Source of the DNA: a virus
Strand: one strand, 5' to 3'
Length of the DNA: 64,000 nucleotides
Virus record (IMG/VR): IMGVR_UViG_3300047470_000115
Location: 1-64,000 of that record
Part shown: positions 7,238 to 60,345 of the stretch, piece after piece
How the letters are laid out: every line of letters starts with the position of its first letter
How positions within the stretch are numbered: position 1 is the stretch's first letter
Notes under the pieces: generated by a model
Seen by the model: the letters and a program-made list of their open reading frames with translations, nothing else
What the model was told of the DNA's origin: nothing
Databases searched by the model: none
Program-made: the position numbers and the translations under genes

Positions 7238-7267
7238 TTGACCGCGTGTCGCGATCCCGGTTATCAT
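7238..7267 (+). promoter_or_regulatory. Sigma70/HrdB-type promoter, divergent from the primase promoter
   Basis: TTGACC-N18-TATCAT. Confidence 0.7.
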
Positions 7268-7271
7268 CGGC

Positions 7272-7415
7272 ATGAGATATGCGGTGCTTGGTCTGGATTC
7301 CGACGAAGTCTTGCGATCGGCCCTCGGGTCGTTTCTTCGCGGATCAGTTACCCGTTCCGAGTGCTACCTGCTGAAGGCCCCCGTTGAGTTCCGAATCTCG
7401 ACGGGGGCCTTTTCC
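7272..7415 (+). ncRNA. Candidate small RNA (~140 nt), putative antisense regulator of primase mRNA
   Basis: Lies between a good promoter and an intrinsic terminator; folds into an irregular rod; 5' end repeats 7145-7155. Confidence 0.5.
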
Positions 7416-7420: not shown

Positions 7421-7550
7421 ATTGCTCACGCTCCACTCCCCCGGCGTCGAATCGTGGTCCGCAGTAGGACTACGAAGTTAACGTCCGAAATGGCCCGTGG
7501 CCAGCGTTACAACCCGCGTAGCGCATCGGATGCACTGTTGGGGCGGTTTG

Positions 7551-9101
7551 ATGGGCGATCAGGGTATTCGCGAGTTCGATACCGAGATGTGGTTCCGTAA
7601 CCCGAACGGGTACGTGAAGGAGCTTGCCGAGGTTGGCGAGTACCTGGTCTCATGGGATTATGGACTTGTCAAGAAGACGCGTCTAGACCCCGTCAAGACG
7701 TGCGAGCTCTACTTCGGTATCGACAAGCCCTGGCGGGCAATCATTGTGGCCGAGTGGGGCGCGGCCGAGTATGTACCTGGAGACAAGTTCGGTACGCCGT
7801 CTGCGGTGTATCCAGTCTTCACTTACGGCGATAGCCAAGACATCCTCGAAGAGATGCTTGAGCTTCCGTGGGGCGAGGACGAGGAGATGTGCTCGAACCC
7901 TCGCGATCAGGACGCCGACAGGGTGCCCATCAAGGGCCAGGAACATCGAGTCGTCATCACGAGCCTGCCGAACATGCGAGACGCACGCTCGCGCGGCTTC
8001 CTCCGCTTCATGGCTGGGAAGCAGCAGGATTACCCGAACTGCATCGTTCACCTACATGGGCTTACTGCATTCAGGCCCATGTTCGCATACCCGTTCAGAG
8101 CGGTGGACTTCGAGGCACGGACAACCGCACAGGGCGGTAGGGTCTGTATGCCAACGGGTAACATCGTTCCGTATGAGCGTAGCGTGAATACTCCGCAGTG
8201 GCTCAAGCTTCTGGGTTACACGGTCGGTGACCTGGCCGTTCCCAGGAATCGCACGATGTTCAACATACGCTCGGCCGCCTGGGCATCGAAGTACTTCCGT
8301 GCCAGTCTGCGTTTCCGCGTGGGACGCGCAAGCCCGAATGGCTCCGTCTTCCCTGGCATGGGTAACGACGAGGCTGCGAATCAGCCTGACGACGAGCTGT
8401 CGGTGATGATTCGAGCCAGGGAGGCGGAGTGGCGCCGCAAGAACGGCGTACCCGCAGAGAGCGAGCCTGTTGATACGACGTCCAGCGACAAGGACTACAA
8501 ACCTGCCGAGGTGAAGAGCACCACGTCGCTGAAGTCCACGAAGTACCTTCCGGGTGACAAGGTGACATGCGATACATGCTCTGTCGCCCGTACATGCAAG
8601 GTCTACCGAGAAGGGTCGGTGTGCAACTTGTCTCAGTCTGACGGCCAGAAGCTAGCGAAGGCGTTCGGCAGCCGAGACTCAAGCCAGATCATCGACGCGC
8701 TTGGTCACGTACTCGGTATGCAGTCTCGACGCCTCGACACGGCGATGCAGAACGAAGAGGACTTCGGCGAGACCGACCCGAACGTAACCACTCTGATGAA
8801 CTCGTTGTTCAAGAACGGAACCACGCTCGCCAAGCTGGTCGATCCGTCTTTGAATGGAGCTGGGGTGAGTGTAAACGTCGGCGTGGCTGCCGGTGGACAG
8901 GCCCAGGTGATGACTGGCAACCCCAACACCATCATGGCGCAGATCATCAGGGTCCTGGAAGATAAGGGCATCCCTCGTAACGAGATCACCTCCGACATGG
9001 TCGCTGGCGTGCTCAAGGAGATGAATCGCGGCTCATCCGCCGTAGCCTCCGACGAACCGCGCGCTATCGAAGGGGTAGTTACGAAGAGGGCTGACGGATG
9101 A
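7551..9101 (+). CDS. Degenerate TGT/DpdA-like barrel fused to a Zn-finger/helical domain; occupies the small-terminase position
   Basis: VYPVFTYGD, VHLHGLT...MFAYPFRAVDF and GRVCMPTG resemble phage queuine-tRNA-ribosyltransferase-like proteins; CDTCSVARTC...C motif; ATGA overlap with terL. Confidence 0.6.
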   Translation: MGDQGIREFDTEMWFRNPNGYVKELAEVGEYLVSWDYGLVKKTRLDPVKTCELYFGIDKPWRAIIVAEWGAAEYVPGDKFGTPSAVYPVFTYGDSQDILEEMLELPWGEDEEMCSNPRDQDADRVPIKGQEHRVVITSLPNMRDARSRGFLRFMAGKQQDYPNCIVHLHGLTAFRPMFAYPFRAVDFEARTTAQGGRVCMPTGNIVPYERSVNTPQWLKLLGYTVGDLAVPRNRTMFNIRSAAWASKYFRASLRFRVGRASPNGSVFPGMGNDEAANQPDDELSVMIRAREAEWRRKNGVPAESEPVDTTSSDKDYKPAEVKSTTSLKSTKYLPGDKVTCDTCSVARTCKVYREGSVCNLSQSDGQKLAKAFGSRDSSQIIDALGHVLGMQSRRLDTAMQNEEDFGETDPNVTTLMNSLFKNGTTLAKLVDPSLNGAGVSVNVGVAAGGQAQVMTGNPNTIMAQIIRVLEDKGIPRNEITSDMVAGVLKEMNRGSSAVASDEPRAIEGVVTKRADG

Positions 9102-10963
9102 TCCAGAAGACCGCCGAGGAGCGGGCACTGGAAAGTTTCGAGTGGCTCAAGCTACACCCGGACTTCGAACAGAAGCCTGCGAGTATCACGGAGTTCCTGG
9201 GGCCCCTCTACCTCAACATCGAAAGCAAGGTTCGTCCGGCCATCAGGTCCGAGCTGGTTAAGCTCTTCGGGGAGGATGTATCTGGCGCCAGGATTGCCAT
9301 CAAGAAGCTCGGCATGTTCACTGGCGCAATCGGCATCGGCAAGACGACCATTGCCAGCATCATTCTTCCGTACATGGTCCACTGGGTGCTATGCCTTAAG
9401 GACCCGCAAGACTTCTACGGCCTACTGCCCGGATCTCGCATCGCATTTATGATGATGAGTACATCGGAGAAGCAGGCGAAGAACGTTCTGTTCGGAGATA
9501 TCTTTGCGCGCATCCAGAACTCACCGTGGTTCACGGAAAACTATTCTTACGATCCGACGTACACGACGATCATCAAGTTCCCGAAGAGTATCTGGATTCT
9601 TCCTGGCGATAGTGCTGAGACTACCTTTGAGGGCTACAACATCCTCGGGGGAATCCTTGACGAGGCAGACTCCCACAAAGTAACCGACAAGCAGGATTAC
9701 GCTGATACCGGTTATGACACGATCTTCACTCGCATGAGTTCTCGGTTCGATGACAAGGGCTTCGTCATGGTCATCGGGCAGATGAAGAAGGCAACTGGGT
9801 TTGCCGCTCGCAAGTACGAGGAGATGAAGAACGATCCAGATGCGCACGTCATCCGGCTGACCATCTGGGAGTCGTTCGGCTGGGCTAAGTACCTCAAGCC
9901 TGACGGACGCCGGGACAGTTTCTGGTACGACAAGAACCGTCGACAGATTGTGCCGTCTGATGTGATCGAGCTCCTCGAAGACTCGAGTACGCTCATTGAA
10001 GTTCCGAACATGTACAAGCGGGACTTCGAGAACAACCCCGAGAAGGCACTCAAAGACCTCGCTGGCATTCCGCCAGCCGTTGGACATCCCTTCATCTCGC
10101 TGATCCACAAGATCACCGAGTGCGTGGACAAGTGGCAGGAACGGTACGAGTTCGTTGGTTCGCCGGTTGACCAGAATTGCACGAAGCCTCAGCTGGCCAG
10201 CTGGTTCAAGGCACTGGACACGCGAAAGCGTGCTCTGCACATTGACGTGGCTTATTCTGAGCATGGCGATGCTCTTGGCCTCGCTATGGGGCACGTCGAG
10301 TCACTCGAAGAGATAGATGGCGAGGAGAAGCCGTACATTGTCTTCGACATCTTGTATCGGATCAAGGCTCCTGCTGGGTCGGAGATCTTCCTTTCAGACA
10401 TCCGGCGCCTCGTATACCACATCAAGGACGACCTCGGCTTTCGACTCGGCAAGATCACCATGGATGGATTCCAGTCCACTGATAGCCTCCAGCAATTCAG
10501 GAAGCGACGCATCAAGTCGGACTACCTGTCTGTCGACCGGAACACACTCCCTTACGAGGACTTGCGTGAGGCGATCTACGACGGTCGAGTGGAGTTCCCG
10601 CCGTACTTCACACAGTTCGATCGGAGTGGTACACGTAGTGGTGAAATCGCCGTAAAAGAGCTGATGGAGCTAGTCGACAACGGCAAGAAGGTGGACCACC
10701 CTGAAGGCGGATCAAAGGACGTAGCGGATTGCATGGCTGGCGTTGTTACGTCTCTGATGGGTGACCGCAGTTACCGGCGCGGGGTACGGTCGTTTGGTTC
10801 AAGTTCGAGTGATTCTCGTTCTGAAGAGACCACCAGCCCGTACTCGGTTGGGGGAATGCTTCTCGACGGTGGAATGGCTGCGAAGGCTCTCGGGCGTAGT
10901 GCCTCACTGCCGCAAGCACCTGTTCCCGGCGAGTTCATGCCACCTCCCGGACGGCATACCTAA
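9098..10963 (+). CDS. terL: Terminase large subunit
   Basis: Walker A FTGAIGIGKT; Walker B GILDEAD; nuclease motifs LHIDVA, TMDGFQS and KVDHPEGGSKDVADCMAG. Confidence 0.93.
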   Translation: MIQKTAEERALESFEWLKLHPDFEQKPASITEFLGPLYLNIESKVRPAIRSELVKLFGEDVSGARIAIKKLGMFTGAIGIGKTTIASIILPYMVHWVLCLKDPQDFYGLLPGSRIAFMMMSTSEKQAKNVLFGDIFARIQNSPWFTENYSYDPTYTTIIKFPKSIWILPGDSAETTFEGYNILGGILDEADSHKVTDKQDYADTGYDTIFTRMSSRFDDKGFVMVIGQMKKATGFAARKYEEMKNDPDAHVIRLTIWESFGWAKYLKPDGRRDSFWYDKNRRQIVPSDVIELLEDSSTLIEVPNMYKRDFENNPEKALKDLAGIPPAVGHPFISLIHKITECVDKWQERYEFVGSPVDQNCTKPQLASWFKALDTRKRALHIDVAYSEHGDALGLAMGHVESLEEIDGEEKPYIVFDILYRIKAPAGSEIFLSDIRRLVYHIKDDLGFRLGKITMDGFQSTDSLQQFRKRRIKSDYLSVDRNTLPYEDLREAIYDGRVEFPPYFTQFDRSGTRSGEIAVKELMELVDNGKKVDHPEGGSKDVADCMAGVVTSLMGDRSYRRGVRSFGSSSSDSRSEETTSPYSVGGMLLDGGMAAKALGRSASLPQAPVPGEFMPPPGRHT

Positions 10964-10977
10964 GTCTGCGGGTACAC

Positions 10978-12705
10978 ATGGCCACTGGACTTGTCGACAG
11001 GAACGGCAACCCACTGAGTTCGAAGAACCATGCACGGACGGCTCGACCCAAGCCCATTGTTGGCGAGGCGTTCGGAAGCTGGACCGGGCGCGATCAGTTC
11101 ATGTACGAGATGCCCGGCGGAGGCTACGTACAGTTCGACCTGAGCAAGCTCACCCTCGCCGACTTTCGGGGGATGAAGACTCACTACCAGGTGAACGCAT
11201 CGCTCTCGCTGCTTTCGTTCATGATCCACCAGTCCGACTGGCACATTGAGTGCGATCAGGCGAAGATCGTGACCCACGTCGAAGACAATATGCGCAACGT
11301 CTGGTCGCGGCTCGTGAGGGCGATGAGTCAGGCGTTCTGGGCTGGCTACTCCCCCAACGTGCTCCAGTGGGAGAATGACGACAAGACCAGCACGGTCCAG
11401 CTGGAGAAGATCAAGGATCTGATTCCCGAAGAGTGCGACATCAACTGGAAGGAAGTCGAGGGGTACATCCCCCCGGATCGTCGTCCGGGTGTCGCACCGA
11501 AGTTCAAGGTGTATGACGGTATTCGTCAGATCGGTGCGCCCTGGCCGATCCCGGTACGTAACTCGCTCTGGTATCCGCTCCTCATGGAGAACGGCAACAT
11601 GTACGGGCGCCAGCTCCTGAAGGCTGCGTACACGCCGTACTTCTTCAGTATGCTTATGCACCTGTTCGCGAACAGGTACTACGAGCGCTTCGGCGAGCCG
11701 GTGCCCATCGGTCGTGCACCGTGGGACAGTGAAGTCGAGATGGGCGGAACGCGAGTCCGTGGCAACGAGGCCATGGCGACGATCCTCTCGAATCTCCGAA
11801 ACAGGTCGACGGTCGTGCTACCTGCAGACATCGACCAGGAGACCAAGGAGTTCGATTACCAGATCGAGTACCTCGAATCCCAGATGCGAGGTGCCGACTT
11901 CGAGCGTTACATGACGCGCCTCGACGAAGAGATCTCGCTTGCACTCTTCACTCCGCTTCTCATGATGCGGACTGCAGACATCGGCTCGTACAACCTCGGC
12001 GTCGGCCACACGCAGGTGTACCTGTGGCTGCTCAATGCGATCCTTGCGGACCTCACCGAGTACGTCAACAAGTACATCCTGTCTCCGATGGTGGACTTCA
12101 ACTTTGGCGAGAAGGCTCCACGCGCGAAGATCGTGTTCCGGAAGCTCGGAACGAAGAACGAAGAGACCATTCGCGCCATCATCACGGAGTTGATCCGTAA
12201 GGGTGCGGCAAAGGTCGACGTGGTCGAGCTGGGCGAGTCTCTGGGCATGAAGGTCGAAGAGGTTGAGGTTGTCACCGAGCCTGCACCTGCACCGACAGAC
12301 CCGTCGGCTGACCCGAACGCGGACCCTAACGCAGACCCGAATGCTGACCCCAACGCACCCAAGCAAGATAATCGTACGGGACGCGATAAGCCGAAGTCGC
12401 CGAAGGGAATCCAGAAGACTTCAAAGGTTCTCGACCTGATTCAGGGTCGCGTCTTTGCGCAGCTCCAGAAGGCAGAGAAGGATGGCTCGTCGCCGAGGAT
12501 TGACCTGGGCTACCTCGGCCAGCTGTCGGACTCGCTGATCGGGAGGGTGCCTCGTCCGAGCGAGACGGCTGGGCAGATGCACTCGCGATTCGAGGCGGCC
12601 CTCGGCGACCTCATGGCTGCCGATGAGTCAAGCGAGGCCATTTCTACGGACTTCGCCTGGTATCTCAAGGCTATCGCAGAGGAGGTTCTTGGTGAGCCAG
12701 CCTGA
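10978..12705 (+). CDS. Portal protein (DUF935/Mu gp29-like)
   Basis: Follows terL; YYERFGEPVPIGR and GSYNLG motifs; 575 aa. Confidence 0.88.
   Translation: MATGLVDRNGNPLSSKNHARTARPKPIVGEAFGSWTGRDQFMYEMPGGGYVQFDLSKLTLADFRGMKTHYQVNASLSLLSFMIHQSDWHIECDQAKIVTHVEDNMRNVWSRLVRAMSQAFWAGYSPNVLQWENDDKTSTVQLEKIKDLIPEECDINWKEVEGYIPPDRRPGVAPKFKVYDGIRQIGAPWPIPVRNSLWYPLLMENGNMYGRQLLKAAYTPYFFSMLMHLFANRYYERFGEPVPIGRAPWDSEVEMGGTRVRGNEAMATILSNLRNRSTVVLPADIDQETKEFDYQIEYLESQMRGADFERYMTRLDEEISLALFTPLLMMRTADIGSYNLGVGHTQVYLWLLNAILADLTEYVNKYILSPMVDFNFGEKAPRAKIVFRKLGTKNEETIRAIITELIRKGAAKVDVVELGESLGMKVEEVEVVTEPAPAPTDPSADPNADPNADPNADPNAPKQDNRTGRDKPKSPKGIQKTSKVLDLIQGRVFAQLQKAEKDGSSPRIDLGYLGQLSDSLIGRVPRPSETAGQMHSRFEAALGDLMAADESSEAISTDFAWYLKAIAEEVLGEPA
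12307..12357 (+). repeat. Coding tandem repeat (ADPN)x4 in the portal C-terminus
   Basis: ADPNADPNADPNADPN with synonymous codon variation. Confidence 0.85.
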
Positions 12706-13006
12706 CGGAAAGACTGAGGTCAGGTGTCCATTCTGTGCGAGGAGTCCCCTCCTTGCCGTGTGCGGTAGGGATGCAAAGGGTAACCCCTTTGTTCATGTCA
12801 GGATCTACAAGCAGAAGCGCATCTTTGGAAACGTGGTTGCTACAGGTGGTCCAGTCCATCTGCAATGTCGCGAGTGCTTCCGGTGGCTCCGAATTCGGTT
12901 CGTCCGAATCTCCGACGTAAACCTCGACGAGGTCAAGGCACAAGATGTTCCGGGATCGGATACACCGACCCCTGCCCGAATGATGGACGCCGCGCAAACC
13001 GCCTAG
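12692..13006 (+). CDS. Zn-ribbon protein (Mu Com-like)
   Basis: GGAGG RBS at 12681 and GTG start; VRCPFC...LQCREC. Confidence 0.75.
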   Translation: MSQPDGKTEVRCPFCARSPLLAVCGRDAKGNPFVHVRIYKQKRIFGNVVATGGPVHLQCRECFRWLRIRFVRISDVNLDEVKAQDVPGSDTPTPARMMDAAQTA

Positions 13007-38766: not shown

Positions 38767-39930
38767 TTATCCCTTCTTCTCCTTGAAGTCGAGCGACATC
38801 GGCTTCGCAGTGCGCTTGCGAAGTTCCTTTAGACTGACGACCTGCTCGGGGGAGAGCCGCTCGTCGTTGAGCATCCTCTTGTGACCGGCCGTGCCGATCT
38901 TTGCGTACTCGAAGTAGACTTTATCGCCAACGAGTGCCCGCACGTCTTCCTCGATCACGAACGACGTGTAATGAGCTTTCATGCGAGCTTCGAGCTCGGT
39001 TCCGTCTTCCTTTGTGTGGTACAGTTCGCTATCCTCGTCAGCGTCCACGCGAGCCTGCAGGAGCTGCTCGATCTCCGTTAGGGCCGACGCGATCATCGAA
39101 GAGGTACTCTTGAGTTCTACAGCGCGCACCAGAATCTGCTCGTCCGTGAGGCCGTGAATCCCACCAGCCTCCTTGTGCTTACGGAACGAACCGCAGTTGT
39201 TCTTCTTAACGCAGAACCCGCACTCGGGGTTGATCGTCTCCTTGATGTCCTCGTCTTCGAGGGCAAGCAAGTACTTTACCCGGCCCTGCAACCAGCGCCA
39301 GCATTCCGCTAGGTCCCGCTCGTTGAAGTAAACCCCGACCTCGGTGTATCTGAGCTGATCGTACACGACGTGTACGCGCTTGACGTCGGGGTAAAGAATC
39401 TTCGTCGCGACAGCGTAGATGCGCGCCTGGGTTGTTCTCTTGACGTCTTCGGGGTAGAGCTTCTTTTGCCACGACTTGTAGTCGACAACTCGCATCGTGG
39501 TCTCATCGATCCGGTCGAGACGGTCGATGATGAAGTTGCAAGGCACCTCCCCCGCGGAAGTGCTAACCTGCACCGTCCTCTTTGACTCAAGAGAAACCAC
39601 CTCGAATTCCCAGGGCGCCTTGTTCCGCTTGAACCAGGTACGCATCATGGCGACGCCGTCCTGATACTGCGGAAGCTCGAACTCGTGATCCTTGAAGATC
39701 TTCAGGTAATACATCTGATAGAAGTCAAGGAGCGTCTGCTCGGTGTGCGGGTGGCTGCCATTGATCACGGCCGTCTTGACGAACCACTCAAGAGCAGAGT
39801 GGCACACGGTACCGAGATCGGCGGCCGAGCTGCTGAAGCCTCGACCGCCGATTACGTTCTCCGCGTACCACCGTGATGTGCACAGCCCCGCCGTCAAGAG
39901 TGCTGTCGGACTTACGGAGCGGAACTTCAT
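38767..39930 (-). CDS. Cas4/RecB-family PD-(D/E)XK exonuclease
   Basis: LGTVCHSALE, IIDRLD...VVDYKS, QARIYA and C-terminal CGFC...C motifs. Confidence 0.88.
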   Translation of the reverse strand: MKFRSVSPTALLTAGLCTSRWYAENVIGGRGFSSSAADLGTVCHSALEWFVKTAVINGSHPHTEQTLLDFYQMYYLKIFKDHEFELPQYQDGVAMMRTWFKRNKAPWEFEVVSLESKRTVQVSTSAGEVPCNFIIDRLDRIDETTMRVVDYKSWQKKLYPEDVKRTTQARIYAVATKILYPDVKRVHVVYDQLRYTEVGVYFNERDLAECWRWLQGRVKYLLALEDEDIKETINPECGFCVKKNNCGSFRKHKEAGGIHGLTDEQILVRAVELKSTSSMIASALTEIEQLLQARVDADEDSELYHTKEDGTELEARMKAHYTSFVIEEDVRALVGDKVYFEYAKIGTAGHKRMLNDERLSPEQVVSLKELRKRTAKPMSLDFKEKKG

Positions 39931-40175
39931 TAGCTCGCCTTCTTTGTGCCTTGCTTCTTCGTTGCACTCCCCCGACGAATTATTCCGCCAGCCCATACGC
40001 CGTACTCAGGCTTAACGCTCAAGCGCAATTCTTTGCACTCAAGCCTGACCGGACACCAGAAGCACGTTTCCATCGCACTTCGATACCCCTGGCCGCGTTC
40101 CGGGAAGAACGCATCGCGGTATACCTCGTCACGCCTGCGAGAAGGCGCCGACCCCAGGCAGGCCGCTCGATCCAT
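39930..40175 (-). CDS. whiB: WhiB-family transcriptional regulator
   Basis: AAC...FFP...CFWCPVRLEC...YGVWAG with four conserved Cys; basic tail. Confidence 0.88.
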   Translation of the reverse strand: MDRAACLGSAPSRRRDEVYRDAFFPERGQGYRSAMETCFWCPVRLECKELRLSVKPEYGVWAGGIIRRGSATKKQGTKKAS

Positions 40176-40626: not shown

Positions 40627-41367
40627 CTACAGGAGCTGGTCTCCAGTGTTGCGCCACTTTTCCATAGCGAGTTTGTGGTTTTTCTCGTCGTACTCGGTCG
40701 ACACGCAGGATCTGTCGGTCGCTCGCGCCGCGCGTGCAGTCGCGTACGAGCCTCCATAGGGATCGACCACCAGCTCGCCGGGCTCCGTACTGAACTGGAT
40801 CAGGTCAGTCAGAAGCTTCAGTGGCTTCTCGTGCGGATGGATGATCTTGCTGGAAGGAAGTTTCGGGCAGTCGATCACGGCACCTCGACGGTCACCGTAC
40901 ATCGGCTTGCGACCCTTCTTGGCGTAGAGAATAAACTCCACGCCACTCCCCCACGTAGCCAAGTCCCCGATCCCAGGCGTCATCGCGCCGTTCTCCAGCC
41001 CCTTGCGCCAGATGAGCGTACGGGTGAACTTGAATCCGTGAGTCTTCTCGACCCATCCCCTCATCAGCTGCAGCCATTCCATCAGGACGGCGTCGTTGCA
41101 GAAGACGTAGAGGTCACAGTGTTCTTTTGTCTTCGGAAGCAGCACATCCATGACAGACTTGAACGTAGCTTCCGCCTTCTCGAAAGTATCGTCGTTCTCG
41201 ATCTTCCGAGCGAACGTCTGACCCTCTGATGTGGTCGACATGTTCGAGTGGTTGTCCGACCCGAAGGGCGGGTCAGTCAAAACCAGGTCCACCGAGTCTG
41301 CAGGCAGTACGGCGAGCCGGTCTTCGGCCTTGCCCTGCCAGAGGCGGTGAAAAGGCTCGTTACTCAT
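40627..41367 (-). CDS. DNA methyltransferase (N6-A/N4-C, beta class)
   Basis: Catalytic motif VDLVLTDPPF, HPHEKP, and SAM motif VVDPYGGS in beta-class order. Confidence 0.9.
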   Translation of the reverse strand: MSNEPFHRLWQGKAEDRLAVLPADSVDLVLTDPPFGSDNHSNMSTTSEGQTFARKIENDDTFEKAEATFKSVMDVLLPKTKEHCDLYVFCNDAVLMEWLQLMRGWVEKTHGFKFTRTLIWRKGLENGAMTPGIGDLATWGSGVEFILYAKKGRKPMYGDRRGAVIDCPKLPSSKIIHPHEKPLKLLTDLIQFSTEPGELVVDPYGGSYATARAARATDRSCVSTEYDEKNHKLAMEKWRNTGDQLL

Positions 41368-41427
41368 TGGCAAGAATCTCCACGGTTGGCGTAGCTCTCC
41401 CAAACGTGGCGGATGACCAACGTCTGG

Positions 41428-50780: not shown

Positions 50781-51704
50781 TCACGCACTCCTCTGATCCT
50801 CGTCGTGCCCTTCGAGTGCGGCTCGAAGTTCGCTCTGCTTGATATCGACATAAACAGCGGCACTGCGTATGTCTCTCTGTCGCAGTACCCGTTGAACCAG
50901 TAGTAGACTCTTGCTCTTGTCGTACACCCTCGTGCCAACCGTATGCCGTCCCGAGTGTGAACCCTCCGACCCGTCGGTCTTGGTCGGCCGCCCTAACGCC
51001 AGTTCAAGAAGCTCGCTCCACCACAGTCGAGCGGTGCGATCGGCTGCACTGATAATCGAAGATCGACCCTCATTCTCGGCAGTCATCGCAGCCATGAACA
51101 GGGGTCGGCGAGCCTTCTTCGGGATCGGGTAGCGCTTGACCTGGCCACCCTTGCCGATCATAATCAGTTCCCAGTTCACGAAGTCGAGCTGCTCGGGTGC
51201 GATCGACCTCGCCTCACTGATGCGGAAGGCCATGTAGCCCGTGAAGGCTACGAGTGCCTCCTTCTCGTTGTGGCCGTCAGCCTTCTCCATCATCTTGTCT
51301 ATGGTGGCATCGCCACCCTCGACCGGGTGAGGCTTCCCGTCCGGTGACGAAGGCTGCTTGTAATCCTTGAGGGGCTCCACCATCCCCAGCGAGGCCATGA
51401 ATCGCCGGAACCCAGCCAGGTGACGAAGGCAGGACTTTACGCGCTCCGGATCGGCAGCCTCCTCGTTGAGGAACTCGGCGGCGATGAACTCCGCCTCCTC
51501 CTGGGAGACCTGTATCGAAAGCCGCTCACGCTCGACCTCGATCCACTTGAGGTCAAGTCGCTCCAGCTTCACCTGCATCAGGAGGAGCGTCAGCACCTTG
51601 GCGTCCGACTGATACGCCCTTCGGGTGTTGGGCTTTCTTCCTTGCGAAATCAGTTGACGTCGGAGACGCTCGAGTGAGTCGGTAGAGACCGTAAAATCCT
51701 TCAT
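50781..51704 (-). CDS. Tyrosine recombinase (Xer/integrase family)
   Basis: FRISEA (R), GKGG (K), SHSGRH (HxxR), AAVY (Y); core-binding N-terminus GRKPNTRRAYQSD. Confidence 0.85.
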   Translation of the reverse strand: MKDFTVSTDSLERLRRQLISQGRKPNTRRAYQSDAKVLTLLLMQVKLERLDLKWIEVERERLSIQVSQEEAEFIAAEFLNEEAADPERVKSCLRHLAGFRRFMASLGMVEPLKDYKQPSSPDGKPHPVEGGDATIDKMMEKADGHNEKEALVAFTGYMAFRISEARSIAPEQLDFVNWELIMIGKGGQVKRYPIPKKARRPLFMAAMTAENEGRSSIISAADRTARLWWSELLELALGRPTKTDGSEGSHSGRHTVGTRVYDKSKSLLLVQRVLRQRDIRSAAVYVDIKQSELRAALEGHDEDQRSA

Positions 51705-52119
51705 CTTCTGCCTGCCTAGCCCTTTCATCACGGCGCTTCACCTCGGGCAAGGCTGCTTCGACTGCTCGATTTACGGCGTCCTGAAGGGCTAGCAACTCTT
51801 CCTCAGTGCATCGGGACAGATTCGTTCGCATCGTGCGACCATCTGGCTGCGACGTCCAGCCGAACCACACGGCAGTCCCGGATTCGAGATTGCCATACTC
51901 GGCGTAGAGTTGTGCACCTTCAGCGCCTTCCTCGACCAGCCGAGCAGCTTCTTCCTCGAATCCCTCCCTTCCGGGGTCCTTGGCTTTGTCTACGACAATC
52001 ACGCCAGGGTAGAAATCGAGTTGGAACTGTCGACCCAGTGGAACTGCACTGAAGCCACCTAGGGGGCGCCTGCCCCCACCGTCTTTTTGATTACGCCTGC
52101 CAGGCTGATAGAGAGTCAC
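51553..52119 (-). CDS. Hypothetical protein overlapping the recombinase 5' end
   Basis: GTGA overlap with the upstream gene; natural-looking composition (NLSRCTEEELLALQDAVNRAVEAALPEV). Confidence 0.7.
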   Translation of the reverse strand: MTLYQPGRRNQKDGGGRRPLGGFSAVPLGRQFQLDFYPGVIVVDKAKDPGREGFEEEAARLVEEGAEGAQLYAEYGNLESGTAVWFGWTSQPDGRTMRTNLSRCTEEELLALQDAVNRAVEAALPEVKRRDERARQAEDEGFYGLYRLTRASPTSTDFARKKAQHPKGVSVGRQGADAPPDAGEAGAT

Positions 52120-54823: not shown

Positions 54824-57700
54824 TTATGACAGAAGCCTCTCGCGAAGTTTCTCGGAGACGAGATGAACATCCTGCGGACCGCTGACGACCACCGTATCAA
54901 GGCCATACGCCGAAGGGCTATCCGTGTTAATGCCCACACCCACGAGGTGAATTCCGGCAGCCTTGCACAGTTCGATGTTGTCCGTGAGGATATCCAGTTC
55001 CTCGTTGTAGTTGGCTTGCGGCATGCGGCCGTCAGTGAAGTAGAAGAATACCTTGTCGGTCGCTCGAATCCCCTGCATCTGCTTACGGTAGAACTCGAGC
55101 GTATGTCCGTCGAGGTTCTCCGAGTCCGGGCCGAGAGTCGACACGGCCTCACGCGCACGAGCACTCCACGGCTCATTGAACGGCTTACACTCGTACATGT
55201 TCGCAACGAGCTTCGTGTCGTACGTCATGACAGGCTGACGGCTACGTCCGCGCCCCTGCCACTGCCTCCACTGCCACTGCGCCGAGTGACCCCAGACTGC
55301 GAACTTGACACCAGGCAGGGCGTTCATCGCATCAGCCATGACCAGGGCACACTGCTTGAGTAGCAGGAGGTTTATGCCGGTCGTGCTGGCCGACAGGTCA
55401 ATGCCCATACCAACTGCATACTCGCGCTTAGCGGGACGCTGCTTCTTCTGGAAGACGCGATCGTCTCCGAAGGGGACGCGTCGCGCCAGCATCGAGCCTG
55501 CAATGTCGCCAGTCTTGCGGTTTCGAACCTGACTCGACCTTTTATTGAAGTCGAAGATCGGCCTGACCGCACCAATGAAACGACTGATGTCCGCAATGCT
55601 CGGCTCGAATGCACCCTCGATGCCGAGCTGCGCATTGTTGTAGTTCGCAAGCGACCGATAAGGCTCGTAGGCATGCGTCCAGGCGAGTGCTGCATCTCGA
55701 CCGTTCTCGTCGAGTGCATGTCGATCTGGGCGTGAAATCAACAGGCCAGTGACATCTCGACGGACAACGTCGAAGGCCATGATCTGGGAATCTGCTGTTC
55801 CCATCTCCTCTTCGAGTGTCTTGATCTGCTCTGGACTGACGGTGTCCTTGCTGGCCGTAGCCTGGTGGGCGAACTGCTCGAAGCCCTTCTCTAGATCTTC
55901 CGGCGTGCCGTACTCGCTCGGATCGATCTGCTGCGGCTGGCGGTCTAGAGGCTCATCACCCTTCTCGTCAAGGTTCTCGCGATCGAAGTCCTCGTCCTCG
56001 TCGCCATCCCACGGACTGTCTTCGGAGTCGTCGTCGCCCTGCTCTGTCGAGTCGGAAGCCTCACCATCAGCCTCGCCGTCAACTTCACCGTCAGAGTCGT
56101 CATCAGAGTCACCGTCACCCTCGCCTTCGCCAGAGCCGGTGCCGCCCGATCCACTTCCGCCATCGGGCGCCTCGTCCTCTCCGTCACCGTCCCCGGTATC
56201 GGGCGTGACTGATGAAGAGGAGTCGTCGTCCCCGTCCTCCGAGCCATCCTGGGCCGGTTCCCCGCCACCGTCCGACGATTCCGAATCGTCGCCTTCACCC
56301 TCAGATTCCTCGCCTGTGCCGCCAGGGCCACCAGAGTCCGACTCCTTGTCGGCATCTTCGGCGTCTCCCTGACCGCTACCCTCGTCGGCGTCGTCGCCGC
56401 CTTCATCCTCGTCGGACTCATCCGACCCCTGGCCGCCGTCAGCGTCGTCGCCCTCGTCGGAGTTCGACTCATCATCCTGCTGGTCAGTACCACCAGACGA
56501 GTCAGACTCCTCGGCATCTTCCGACTCCTCGTCGGACTCGCCATCACTCTGGCCGCCGTCGGAGTCGGAATCCGAGTCAGACTCTTCTTGCCCGTCGTTG
56601 TCACCAGAGTCTTCGTCGGAATCCTCGTCGGACGAGTCATCGGACTCTTCGAACTGAATTTCAGTCTGTTCGCCAGGTCCAGCCGAGTCGTCCGGCTCGC
56701 TGTCGTCCTCATCCTTCGGCTCGGGCTGCGGCTGGGGCTCGCCGTCCTGGTCGTCCTCGTCCTCGTCCTCGCTGTCCTGCTCCGGGAAGAACCCGAGCTC
56801 CTGCGCGATAGACAGGAAGTCCTGTGATGCATGGAAGGCGTCGCGAACGGTCCTCATGCCGCCTTCGAGCGACCTCGCGAACTCCTGCATGACGGGATTC
56901 TCGATCGCCTCTACGACCGGCTCGCTGTACGCAGTTGGCACAAACGAATCCAGCACCAGGTTATAGAACGCGACCACGAGCTGGACGTTGAGGGGCTGAC
57001 CCCTGAAGGGCATCCACACCTTCTCGCCCTCGTCACCCTCGATCATCTCGCCGCCGGACTCCTGGCGACGGATAATGTCAGCGCGACGCACGCGAGCTGA
57101 ACCAGGGCGAACCTTACCCATCTTCAGGTCGACGCGCACATCTTCCATGATGTTGACGATCGCCGGAAGATACGGCGACGAGACGGCTGCGACAGTCATC
57201 CAGTCGGGCGACCGCATCAGTGCCTCGCGGAGCTTCTCACCCGTAGCCTGATCGACCTTTCCGGTCGAGATCATGCGACGGATGGCAGACATGATGTCAG
57301 CATCCTTAGCGGGCTCGAAAGTATTGTGTGCTACGTGCGAGATCTCGTGAACCATGCGGGACATAACGAGATCGTTGATAGCGCAGCGCCTGCACCTCGA
57401 CTCGCCATAGGAGGTCCGAAGATCACAGAAGTTCGGCTGGTGCGAACCGGCCTTGCCGAGGGCGAGAGGCGGACGCACGTAGATGTCCTGGTTGTCGGTC
57501 CAAGACTTGTCCCATGTCAGCCGCACTCGAAGTGAAGGCCGCTTAGTGACTACCCTCGCGAACGACTCAAGCATCGGACGCATGGCTGCGAACTCCTGCG
57601 CCGTCTGTCGAACCAACTCGCGCAGGGCGTGATTCGCCATGTCCTGCGTATCGACTGCAACCTCAAGGGGATCTCCCCCCTCGTACACACTGCTAACCAT
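54824..57700 (-). CDS. CobT-like VWA protein: HExxH domain, long acidic linker, VWA domain
   Basis: VHEISHVAH and NIMEDVRVD motifs; about 280-aa D/E/S/G tract; MIDAS GIDLSAST and FYFTDGRMP. Confidence 0.88.
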   Translation of the reverse strand: MVSSVYEGGDPLEVAVDTQDMANHALRELVRQTAQEFAAMRPMLESFARVVTKRPSLRVRLTWDKSWTDNQDIYVRPPLALGKAGSHQPNFCDLRTSYGESRCRRCAINDLVMSRMVHEISHVAHNTFEPAKDADIMSAIRRMISTGKVDQATGEKLREALMRSPDWMTVAAVSSPYLPAIVNIMEDVRVDLKMGKVRPGSARVRRADIIRRQESGGEMIEGDEGEKVWMPFRGQPLNVQLVVAFYNLVLDSFVPTAYSEPVVEAIENPVMQEFARSLEGGMRTVRDAFHASQDFLSIAQELGFFPEQDSEDEDEDDQDGEPQPQPEPKDEDDSEPDDSAGPGEQTEIQFEESDDSSDEDSDEDSGDNDGQEESDSDSDSDGGQSDGESDEESEDAEESDSSGGTDQQDDESNSDEGDDADGGQGSDESDEDEGGDDADEGSGQGDAEDADKESDSGGPGGTGEESEGEGDDSESSDGGGEPAQDGSEDGDDDSSSSVTPDTGDGDGEDEAPDGGSGSGGTGSGEGEGDGDSDDDSDGEVDGEADGEASDSTEQGDDDSEDSPWDGDEDEDFDRENLDEKGDEPLDRQPQQIDPSEYGTPEDLEKGFEQFAHQATASKDTVSPEQIKTLEEEMGTADSQIMAFDVVRRDVTGLLISRPDRHALDENGRDAALAWTHAYEPYRSLANYNNAQLGIEGAFEPSIADISRFIGAVRPIFDFNKRSSQVRNRKTGDIAGSMLARRVPFGDDRVFQKKQRPAKREYAVGMGIDLSASTTGINLLLLKQCALVMADAMNALPGVKFAVWGHSAQWQWRQWQGRGRSRQPVMTYDTKLVANMYECKPFNEPWSARAREAVSTLGPDSENLDGHTLEFYRKQMQGIRATDKVFFYFTDGRMPQANYNEELDILTDNIELCKAAGIHLVGVGINTDSPSAYGLDTVVVSGPQDVHLVSEKLRERLLS

Positions 57701-58725: not shown

Positions 58726-60333
58726 TCAGCCGACGCGCGTTTTGACCGTTCCGCGTACCAAGTCGCGTTCGCGCGGGTCGAGGAAGTTGACCAGCGCGAT
58801 GTCGTACGCCTTAGTGAGCGGCCAGATGCGAGACAGCTTCGCCACCTTGATGCTGTGACGGACACCCCATGAAGTCGTGATCGAGTGATTGGCGGCGAGG
58901 CCACGCAGATCTTCGGCGATCCCGACGATCTGATCGAGCGTCTCCTCGCCGATCTTCCAGCCGATGTCAGGGTCGTCGGCCCACTCGCGCAGAATCTCGC
59001 GCTCGATATCGAACGGCGGATAGTCCACAGCGAGGTGCGCGAGACGAGAACTGTCTGCGTCGGCGATCATGTCAGCGCCCACGTTACGTGTATCCCAGGC
59101 AGGGTTCATCGCCAGGGCGAACACCGAGTCGGGATGGCGCTCGATGATCTCGCCAGCGTTCTTGTCGATGACGAACTGCTTCGAGTTGTCCGTGAGTGGA
59201 CGCACCGCCTGCCAGACCTCGACCGGCCCCACGTTGGGCTCGTCAAGGCAGATGACACCGGGCGACTGCCACGCACGAGGGAGGCGACCGTGGGCGAACT
59301 TGGTCGCGTTGTCCTGCAGGGTGAACTGGCCGACCAGTTCCTCGACCTCGGTGCTGGCCGTGATGCTGATCCGATGGAACGGCAACTGCATCAGCCACGC
59401 CATGTGTCGCAGGACTTCGGTCTTGCCGACACCTGCCGGACCCCACAGGGCGGGCGTCTCGTCCATCTCCCACCACAGGGCGGCGAGCATGAACACAAGG
59501 CCCAGGTAGTCGATGAAGTTCTCGGGGTGCTCGTCGTCGCCAGTGGTCGGTACCAGAGCCTGCAGGTTCTTGGGGAATCGCGCCTTGTCGTAGACCGGAA
59601 TGAACACCGAGGCTCCAGTGTCATGGTCAACGATCTCACGCCATGCCCTTATGCCGCGATCCTTGTCCTCGACACTCAGGGTGCGATCCGTCGGATACTG
59701 TGACGGATCGACGAAGTTGACACGCTCCGACTTCCACCGCTCCAAGGGTGTCATCATCTTGAAGTACGCGTCAACGAGCTCGGGGATGAGCCGCATCTGA
59801 CCGTCCATCTGACGATTGTGCACCGGCGTACCGCCGTAGCGCATCAGGCGAACAGCCGACCCGCACCGCTGCGACTTCTCGGCGACCTGCCCCTGAAAGA
59901 CCAGCTCGTTGCGTGAGCTGCAAATGCCGGTCCCCCGCCAGCCGAGACGAACCGTCTCGGCCCTGTTGTAGAAGATGCACTCCGTACAGGTCTCGACCTT
60001 CGGGATTCCATCGTTCTCGTCATCCTCCCCGAGCATGACCTGTGCCGCAACAGCCTCCCTACTCGGGAGCGTGACAGGCGGATTCACCTTCGACCAAGTC
60101 ACAGTCGACGGACGGGGCAAGCCGTACTCCTGGCACTTCCCCGCCGTCGCCTTGCGGAGTCCGTCGGCCTGCCTCGGATGCATCTCTTCACGTCCGAGAA
60201 TGTACCCGAACCTTGCGCAGTGGTCCATGCCGGTTCGAGTTCCGAAAAGCTTCTCGGACTCGGGACCGTCAGGAACGAACGAAGGGCACCCTACGCAAGA
60301 GCGCTTCTTCTCGCCGACAGCCTCGGTTGTCAT
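58726..60333 (-). CDS. MoxR/CobS-like AAA+ ATPase with Cys-rich N-terminal extension
   Basis: LWGPAGVGKT, ELVGQF, CLDEPN and ALAMNP...ADSSRL motifs. Confidence 0.9.
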   Translation of the reverse strand: MTTEAVGEKKRSCVGCPSFVPDGPESEKLFGTRTGMDHCARFGYILGREEMHPRQADGLRKATAGKCQEYGLPRPSTVTWSKVNPPVTLPSREAVAAQVMLGEDDENDGIPKVETCTECIFYNRAETVRLGWRGTGICSSRNELVFQGQVAEKSQRCGSAVRLMRYGGTPVHNRQMDGQMRLIPELVDAYFKMMTPLERWKSERVNFVDPSQYPTDRTLSVEDKDRGIRAWREIVDHDTGASVFIPVYDKARFPKNLQALVPTTGDDEHPENFIDYLGLVFMLAALWWEMDETPALWGPAGVGKTEVLRHMAWLMQLPFHRISITASTEVEELVGQFTLQDNATKFAHGRLPRAWQSPGVICLDEPNVGPVEVWQAVRPLTDNSKQFVIDKNAGEIIERHPDSVFALAMNPAWDTRNVGADMIADADSSRLAHLAVDYPPFDIEREILREWADDPDIGWKIGEETLDQIVGIAEDLRGLAANHSITTSWGVRHSIKVAKLSRIWPLTKAYDIALVNFLDPRERDLVRGTVKTRVG

Positions 60334-60345
60334 CCCGCACACCCC

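Follow-up and report, generated by a model that had tools for sequence, protein, structure and literature searches.

What kind of protein stands in the place of the small terminase (TerS) when the gene directly 5' of terL, the gene of the large terminase subunit, begins with a TIM barrel? Small terminases choose the DNA for packaging, normally with a helix-turn-helix (HTH) DNA-binding domain, and to our knowledge it is HTH domains that the known small terminases use for this choice. The question is raised by a stretch of DNA (the window) comprising bases 1-64000 of the 79,487-bp virus genome IMGVR_UViG_3300047470_000115, which is rated complete by CheckV. The gene concerned was defined by open reading frame (ORF) call and translation at 7551..9101 on the + strand. 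It encodes a protein of 516 amino acids (P0001), a putative small terminase whose N-terminal barrel resembles tRNA-guanine transglycosylases (TGTs) and DpdA, the DNA transglycosylase exchanging guanine for 7-deazaguanine. The reading we favour, and to which we assign about even chances, is that the protein is a small terminase using an exapted, non-catalytic DpdA barrel as its DNA-recognition module.

Fold and sequence relationship of the N-terminal half

The AlphaFold2 (AF2) model, calculated from a 47-sequence alignment, shows alternating strands and helices in residues 1-255 (7551..8315, +), mostly at a pLDDT > 90. In a Foldseek search against the PDB the top 50 matches were all TGTs (best E 3e-4, prob 1.0), and VIA-align gave Z scores of 12.0-12.3 across 213-219 residues when the model was aligned to TGT. 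A Foldseek-independent VIA search of 48,161 representative chains ranked the archaeosine TGT 1iq8 first (Z 12.3, 218 residues aligned, rmsd 4.1), Cap10 (9ntn, Z 10.4) second, a bacterial TGT (3unt, Z 10.3) fourth, the DpdA structure 7UI4 (Z 10.2) fifth and the non-catalytic QTRT2 (6fv5, Z 10.0) sixth. Matches in BFVD were phage 'queuine tRNA-ribosyltransferases'. The nearest named clusters in the ESM Atlas were PF23859 (DpdA) and PF20314 (DpdA4), and the structural neighbours of the barrel were DpdA/TGT clusters with TM 0.59-0.63. The N-terminal half is a TIM barrel of the TGT/DpdA superfamily and a remote homologue of DpdA. Its TGT-like character, which the initial annotation had read from the letters and translations, is borne out by the AF2 model, by both structure searches and by the profile comparisons below.

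In terms of sequence, the DpdA link consists only of a remote match to phrog_887 (6.5e-7) and a profile-profile alignment. The family phrog_887, labelled 'queuine tRNA-ribosyltransferase', is that of the canonical phage DpdAs, e.g., 9g gp03 (6.9e-98). Small profiles gave weak yet consistent alignments with DpdA. When 261 N-domains of the family were compared with 80 DpdA1-type proteins from viral contigs by hhalign, residues 65-251 were aligned with Prob 95.7% and E 8.9e-9. Here I65-V-A-E-W69 is paired with V-I-G-D-x of the second DpdA motif aaLDvIGD, Y87-P88-V-F-T91-Y-G93-D94 with l-P-x-F-H-x-G-E, H169-G170 with the HG of VHGFG, A184-V-D186 with S-x-D of the nucleophile motif DSS, and R234...N238 with the downstream R...N. 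The segment H167-L-H169-G170 ... A184-V-D186-F ... R190 (8049..8120, +) thereby corresponds to the 'HGxG' and nucleophile-Asp strands of DpdA. The strings quoted in the initial annotation were located at residues 65-74 (IVAEWGAAEY), 88-90 (PVF), 167-172 (HLHGLT), 180-186 (YPFRAVD), 184-187 (AVDF) and 196-198 (GRV).

The assignment of the first catalytic motif had to be changed. IVAEWGAAEY (7743..7772, +) had been taken as the replacement of lDSGaf, which was a misalignment, as hhalign and the column frequencies set it against the second motif, LDvIGD. The reading of AVDF as the counterpart of SvDS was right as a correspondence, but the nucleophile Asp itself is kept as D186. For the first 64 residues no significant alignment to DpdA was obtained (E 0.11, segment-only). 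The secondary structure elements of the model follow each other as beta 12-16, alpha, beta 32-36, alpha-alpha and beta 62-66, and Rosebush-type DpdAs show one strand, the DSGAF strand, two helices and the LD strand. Because of this matching order W35-D36-x-G38-x-[LV] would be the natural counterpart of G-D-S-G-A-F, which makes W35-D36-Y37-G38 (7653..7664, +), placed by secondary-structure order only, the candidate for the acid/base motif DSG(A/G)F, whose general acid/base Asp is D95 in bDpdA. In a low-confidence alignment path DSGAF faces a gap, which is a register other than W35-D36. Small, large and segment-only profiles gave no fixed placement, and the DSGAF-equivalent is either this candidate or absent.

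A generic TIM-barrel resemblance of unrelated origin would account for some of these results. In the VIA search Z scores of 8-10.3, not much lower than those of the TGTs, were obtained for unrelated TIM barrels as well, and sequence identity to TGT amounts to 7-12%. Neither the whole protein nor the family profiles gave a meaningful match in Pfam or PDB sequence searches. The protein has no Pfam match at E<=1, PF20314 (DUF6610/DpdA4) included, and in the genome nothing matched the curated models PF01702 (TGT) at E<=1 or PF23859 (DpdA) at E<=10. However, the unrelated barrels align only ~160 residues, whereas chains of the TGT superfamily align 200-218 residues and hold five of the six top places. 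In addition, the motifs are collinear in the highly significant hhalign comparison, the phrog_887 match is independent of it, and the ESM Atlas neighbours are DpdA/TGT both by features and by structure. We consider an unrelated origin highly improbable.

Pocket residues and 7-deazaguanine genes

The conservation of the pocket was analyzed across the protein family. The 516-aa protein has 161 word-sharing homologues, and an exhaustive HMMER search yielded 386 clusters at 50% identity, 221 of these with E-values < 1e-30. Nearly all members have a length of 430-530 aa and match across both halves; shorter matches are fragments truncated N-terminally, and a search for stand-alone C-domain proteins (< 283 aa) found none. 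Columns were evaluated for 261-271 members, with some counts at n=261, 265 or 271. As a control served 80 DpdAs with a mean pairwise identity of 33%, in which the Asp of DSG, the Asp of LD, the His of PxFH, the His of HG and the Asp of DSS are each present in 80/80; the DSG and DSS motifs were part of the retrieval patterns, LD, PxFH and HG were not.

The residues which read the base in DpdA have no conserved counterpart in the family. The base-recognition Asp of the LD motif (control D67, bDpdA D130) faces I64-Q69 (W69 here), where column 64 is L/I/M, column 67 is G, column 68 is D/E in only 55% and column 69 is Q in 63% of the members (W in this phage). The base-recognition His of PxFH (control H95, bDpdA H181) faces T91, in a column that varies between E, S, D, T and Q. 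At the position of the nucleophile (bDpdA D256, Z. mobilis TGT D280, phage DSS) this protein has D186, as do 92% of the family members; H169 is retained in 84% and D36 in 76%. The full set of D36, D186, H169, R234 and Q130 is found in 173/265 members (65%), among them the protein studied here and gp001 of the Rhodococcus phage ReqiDocB7, whereas 35% of the members lost D36, D186 or the HxHG motif. D36 is missing while D186 is kept in 37 members, and the cultured Gordonia and Tsukamurella members (Demosthenes, Woes, GTE7 and TIN2 types) are all without D186, HxHG and R234.

This distribution suggests that, in the family as a whole, the DpdA-type pocket can be dispensed with and the guanine/preQ0-reading residues were lost, while the pocket is still under selection in the core clade, which includes this phage. 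As the full set is kept in 65% of the members, residual or altered enzymatic activity is possible there. The description of the barrel as catalytically eroded thus fits the base-recognition residues and the trend in the family, but for the two catalytic Asp of this particular protein a loss was not demonstrated. Better evidence of lost chemistry is provided by the missing base-recognition residues and by the lineage-wise loss of Asp and His in comparison with an invariant C-terminal module.

Genes of the 7-deazaguanine pathway were searched in the complete genome and in related phages. TGT (PF01702), DpdA (PF23859), QueC, QueD/PTPS and GTP cyclohydrolase I (FolE) gave nothing in the 79.5-kb genome or in four complete relatives (93-100%), while control genomes responded to the pathway-gene searches, and QueC is absent from five cultured relatives as well. 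Pfam and PHROG scans of the ~87 ORFs of the genome (limited in one scan to the best 25 of 49 PHROG families, so that a weak match may be missed) found no queuosine, ParB or radical-SAM families. The lack of a queuosine pathway noted for the window therefore extends, for QueC, QueD and FolE, to the whole genome and to the four relatives. The sole DNA-modification gene recognised in the genome is that of a DNA methyltransferase at 40627-41403 (-; phrog_67, 4e-37).

Whether the barrel nevertheless works as an enzyme has to be judged from these data. It may represent a divergent DpdA of a sixth kind, or else a DNA glycosylase, that is joined to the terminase and exchanges or removes a base at the time of packaging or shortly ahead of it, with a substrate made by the host or with another base than preQ0. 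The 92% conserved D186 is aligned to the DpdA/TGT nucleophile, the HG motif is kept, and the complete residue set persists in most members. Moreover, there are phages in which DpdA comes without the pathway genes and preQ0 is supplied by the host (PMC6884629), and DpdA3 and DpdA4 were likewise found by remote homology only (PMC10516641). However, the base-recognition Asp and His which are invariant in the control DpdAs have no conserved counterpart, the 37 members that lost D36 and keep D186 do not fit a two-Asp mechanism, and whole cultured clades without D186 and HxHG retain the gene in place. Curated DpdA and TGT models do not match, preQ0 genes were not found in 10 genomes (in the five cultured ones for QueC only), and no ParB/DpdB-like partner was found among the scanned ORFs. 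On balance we regard a surviving enzyme of this kind as unlikely, although it is the strongest competitor of the non-catalytic reading.

A more specific variant, to which we give slightly less weight still, is a catalytic barrel with changed specificity, i.e., a base-exchange or base-excision enzyme built into the terminase that would act on phage DNA when packaging starts, marking or processing it for example at the sites defining the terminal repeats. If this is true, the barrel would form a DpdA subfamily of its own, the sixth, and this would be the first case in which the small terminase links the packaging motor to a modification or processing of the DNA. The exchange of guanine for 7-deazaguanine appears unlikely from the sequences, because the base-reading residues are gone, no preQ0 pathway gene is found and many lineages lost the putative catalytic Asp/His yet keep the protein. 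An active enzyme scavenging preQ0 from the host, the alternative offered by the initial annotation, is likewise disfavoured. Its other proposal, a repurposed packaging factor, is the best-supported reading, with the gene in small-terminase position. Catalysis would accordingly be lacking also in this particular member, which keeps D36, H167/H169 and D186.

The neighbourhood of canonical DpdA genes offers a possible origin for the barrel. In the Mycobacterium phages MasterPo (Rosebush-type), Quesadilla and Nadezda the leftmost block, directly 5' of the terminase, consists of a ParB-like gene, a canonical DpdA gene and QueC/D/E/FolE (1-5924 of L073, 1-6175 of L075 and 202-5654 of L078, respectively). 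In the Microbacterium phage Nicole72 the leftmost block is the same, with two DpdA paralogues (1-6403 of L077); the stretch examined there ends ahead of any terminase gene. A separate TerS is annotated in none of these four stretches. The phage pairing of a ParB-like gene with DpdA echoes the bacterial DpdA/DpdB pair (PMC10164549). As phages of this host group repeatedly have a DpdA gene beside their packaging genes, fusion to a small terminase with subsequent loss of the ancestral chemistry is a plausible route to the present protein.

C-terminal module and position in front of terL

The barrel is followed by a disordered linker of variable length (residues 256-330; 8316..8540, +), with pLDDT below 50-60, a large alignment gap in most homologues and a mean identity of 28%, compared with 39% in the N-domain and 49% in the C-terminal core. 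Behind it lies a four-Cys knuckle with D336 and C340-x2-C343-x5-C349-x8-C358 (8550..8624, +); the CxxC-x5-C-x8-C finger and the helical domain listed in the initial annotation are thus present and predicted, respectively. The AF2 helices of this half span residues 364-372, 377-405 and 410-430, and the helical core with its long hairpin (residues 364-435; 8640..8855, +) is presumed to be an oligomerisation module. A C-terminal two-helix unit (residues 458-492; 8922..9026, +) with the conserved motif G473-I-P-R476-x2-I479-T480 would be the tail that contacts TerL or DNA. When the C-domain was folded alone the mean pLDDT was 66 and the zinc knuckle was unresolved; the hairpin formed model residues 52-105, and the two-helix tail reached pLDDT 84-96.

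All four Cys and E402 are present in 271/271 members, R394 is as good as invariant like E402 (~100%), and D336 (259/261), G473 (260/261) and T480 (252/261) are nearly so. Because the Cys set and E402 are invariant while pocket residues were lost in several lineages, the part that the protein cannot do without is the C-terminal module, which was found in none of the 80 DpdAs.

In ReqiDocB7 (152-1548 of L161) the family gene is annotated as two genes, gp001 for the barrel (295 aa) and gp002 for the C-module (151 aa). The tblastn match of the C-module begins 22 codons 5' of the gp002 start, in the frame of gp002, and overlaps the end of gp001, from which a frame change within the linker follows. 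The cause may be a true split of the gene, programmed frameshifting or an error in sequencing.

The stop codon of the gene (TGA, 9099-9101) overlaps the start codon of terL (ATG, 9098-9100) in an ATGA at 9098-9101, where the sequence reads GGATGATCC; the translational coupling proposed initially agrees with this overlap. TerL (9098..10963, +) has 621 aa and matches the terminase large subunit family phrog_2 (8.8e-21), and the next gene encodes a Mu gp29-like portal protein (10978..12705, +; PF06074 4.4e-31, phrog_113 9.3e-80). Among related viral loci the order of family gene, terL and portal is kept in 70/70, with a divergent primase upstream wherever the contig extends to it, and Demosthenes and ReqiDocB7 show the same layout of the gene and terL. 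By tblastn the protein was found in 116 cultured Gordonia, Tsukamurella and Rhodococcus phages, always just 5' of the terminase, where it is annotated as 'hypothetical protein' or 'terminase small subunit'.

In about one third of the 70 loci 0.2-1.6 kb of unrelated genes lie between the family gene and terL (examples are L004 7152-8731, L007 2665-3755, L010 5328-5708, L026 6298-7059 and L003 6111-6428, all from related phages). None of these inserts is conserved and none is TerS-like, and moron insertion appears to be particularly frequent at this junction. The inserted genes encode an SNase-like nuclease, a papain-like Cys peptidase, an HNH endonuclease, a peptidoglycan-binding protein and small membrane ORFs.

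Direct terminal repeats of 192 bp are known from the cultured relatives Woes, Monty and Hotorobo (PMC4982279), whose terminase must therefore cut at defined sites. The records of three cultured relatives and one metagenomic relative are classed by IMG/VR under 'direct terminal repeats'. The record studied here carries an exact 126-bp direct repeat at its ends (1-126 and 79356-79481), after which 6 bases without a counterpart remain at the right end, and its IMG/VR entry states no end repeats. The repeat could be a real short terminal repeat or the k-mer overlap of an assembler in a circular or concatemeric assembly; the former is conceivable as the relatives with 192-bp repeats have the same left-arm layout.

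An HTH-type domain was not found at the N-terminus, where the TIM barrel stands in its place. The predicted hairpin 377-430 and the conserved unit 458-492 are situated where the oligomerisation helices and the TerL-binding segment of a small terminase would be expected, which suggests these roles. The C-terminal ~190 residues, with zinc knuckle, long helical hairpin, Gly-rich linker and two-helix tail, would thus serve ring assembly and TerL contact. The ~255 N-terminal residues, a TIM barrel presumably descended from phage DpdA, would take the usual position of the HTH domain, and the barrel would have been exapted to recognise DNA for packaging initiation.

Alternatively, the protein may be no small terminase at all and instead another product of the first late gene, with a function in DNA-end binding, anti-defence or regulation, that travels with terL, the true TerS being an unrecognised small ORF or dispensable. 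TerS family models and solved TerS structures do not match the protein, its 516 aa far exceed the typical size, the genes inserted in one third of the relatives mean that tight coupling to terL is not universal, and many ORFs of the genome have no recognisable function. However, the position 5' of terL is kept throughout the 70 loci, with inserts that are heterogeneous. The hairpin and the short conserved C-terminal unit fit the organisation of small terminases, and weak matches to T4-type and T5-type TerS recur, namely gp16 of PhiW-14 (T4-type; Foldseek prob 0.84-0.96) and the T5_Terminase_small clusters in the ESM Atlas (0.86), which we take as a lead only. The search for a separate terS in the rest of the genome, suggested by the initial annotation, detected neither a second TerS-like nor a ParB-like gene among the ~87 ORFs within the scope of the scans given above. 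We judge a function other than that of a small terminase improbable, about as much as a barrel of changed specificity.

Several observations weigh against a small terminase with a DNA-reading barrel. The PHROG matches labelled TerS, phrog_6902 (8e-63) and phrog_16015 (2.7e-31), are the same family as the 516-aa protein and were named by gene position; the labels 'terminase small subunit' in PHROGs and RefSeq appear position-based, in accordance with the published basis of the TerS label in these phages (PMC4524720). The C-domain matches neither a curated Pfam TerS model nor a solved TerS structure; in comparison with PDB structures it gave only generic helical hairpins (Z<=8.1, uninformative). 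A kinship to T5-type TerS was considered and rejected, as the profile comparison with gp156, the TerS of T5, was not significant (hhalign E 0.33). Overall the charge of the protein is acidic to neutral and the computed pI of the domains thus does not support DNA binding, and this member retains the complete pocket set together with 65% of the family. Since invariant position, architecture and the absence of an alternative speak for TerS without a family match, we infer the TerS role, and likewise the barrel's part in DNA recognition.

With respect to the gene boundaries, translation might alternatively start from an in-frame GTG at 7497. However, the homologues begin ~10 aa ahead of the conserved TEVWFRNP, which favours the start at 7551, and exactly the 516-aa form is present in the public protein collection. 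A strong terminator-like hairpin with a 16-pair stem and a following T-run (7373..7412, +) is located 140 nt 5' of the gene. A sigma-70-like promoter (TTGACC-18-TATCAT, 7238-7267, +) lies ahead of this hairpin, and the interval from the hairpin to the gene start revealed no consensus promoter. The opposite strand further upstream encodes, according to the Pfam/PHROG scans, an AEP primase and a DUF3987 helicase-primase.

Other genes of the genome were recognised in the same scans. A Cys-rich (CxxC...CxxC) ORF of 127 aa just 3' of the portal gene (12623-13006, +) has no match beyond PHROGs of unknown function (phrog_20049, 1e-16). On the - strand a Cas4/RecB-like exonuclease (38767-39996; phrog_69, 7e-27), a tyrosine-recombinase-like protein (50781-51731; phrog_216, 1e-15), a CobT/VWA-like protein of 958 aa (54824-57700; phrog_5298, 2e-125) and a MoxR-like ATPase of 538 aa (58726-60342; phrog_5424, 2e-153) are encoded, the latter two forming a pair that is characteristic of this phage group. 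A match to PF11195 (Tad2-like, Thoeris anti-defence 2; 5.9e-17) was obtained for one ORF of the genome. The stretch is present in rhizosphere and soil metagenome sequencing runs; no RNA run is listed, which is no evidence either way.

Implications and comparison with known systems

The family is already contained in databases under its positional TerS label, and what is added here is the DpdA-derived barrel. Among open-access papers none was found that connects a small terminase with a TGT or DpdA fold. If the favoured reading is true, packaging sites in a large soil/actinobacterial phage family would be read by a TIM barrel taken from a base-flipping DNA transglycosylase, which would be a different mode of recognition and a clear case of an anti-restriction enzyme exapted into the virion-assembly machinery. 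For annotation this means that the family should not be scored as DpdA when genomes with 7-deazaguanine modification are predicted. A tractable contrast is offered by ReqiDocB7, which keeps the Asp set, and by Demosthenes and Woes, which lost it.

Among the known systems phage DpdA1 (PHROG 887/PF23859; 9g gp03, Rosebush-type gp2) is similar in several respects. Both proteins are phage-encoded and have a TGT-type barrel, their motifs are collinear from the third strand on (P-x-[FW]-x-x-G-[DE], H-G, the nucleophile Asp and R...N), and in actinophages DpdA1 also adjoins the terminase gene. In contrast to DpdA1, the 516-aa protein has no match to the curated model and lacks the base-recognition Asp and His as well as the Ser flanking the nucleophile. 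It is not accompanied by preQ0 pathway genes or a ParB-like partner, and a C-terminal module of ~190 aa is fused to it.

With bacterial DpdA (7UI4) and the TGTs (1iq8, 1p0d, 7nq4) the protein has the fold in common, and an Asp at the position which the profiles assign to the covalent nucleophile. The barrel is, however, much smaller with its 255 aa, and the CxCxxC...H zinc subdomain that follows the barrel in these enzymes is absent; instead, the four-Cys knuckle is found past the disordered linker and with another spacing. The three-Asp active site of DpdA and TGT (PMC10164549) is not conserved as a set in the family.

TGT folds recruited beyond canonical tRNA base exchange are known from Cap10 (9ntn), a TGT-like CBASS accessory protein, and from the non-catalytic eukaryotic TGT subunit QTRT2 (6fv5). 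Both differ from the present protein in being cellular, without a link to DNA packaging, without a module of knuckle and hairpin and without a detectable sequence relationship to it. QTRT2 is a pseudoenzyme with TGT fold.

With the small terminases of T4 gp16-type, T5-type (PF26823) and Sf6/P22-type the gene shares its place directly 5' of terL and its orientation, with overlapping codons in this phage, and the helical hairpin and short conserved tail of the C-module resemble their oligomerisation core and TerL-binding end. Compared with them the protein is three to four times larger, contains a four-Cys knuckle and has the HTH domain replaced by a TIM barrel of 255 aa.

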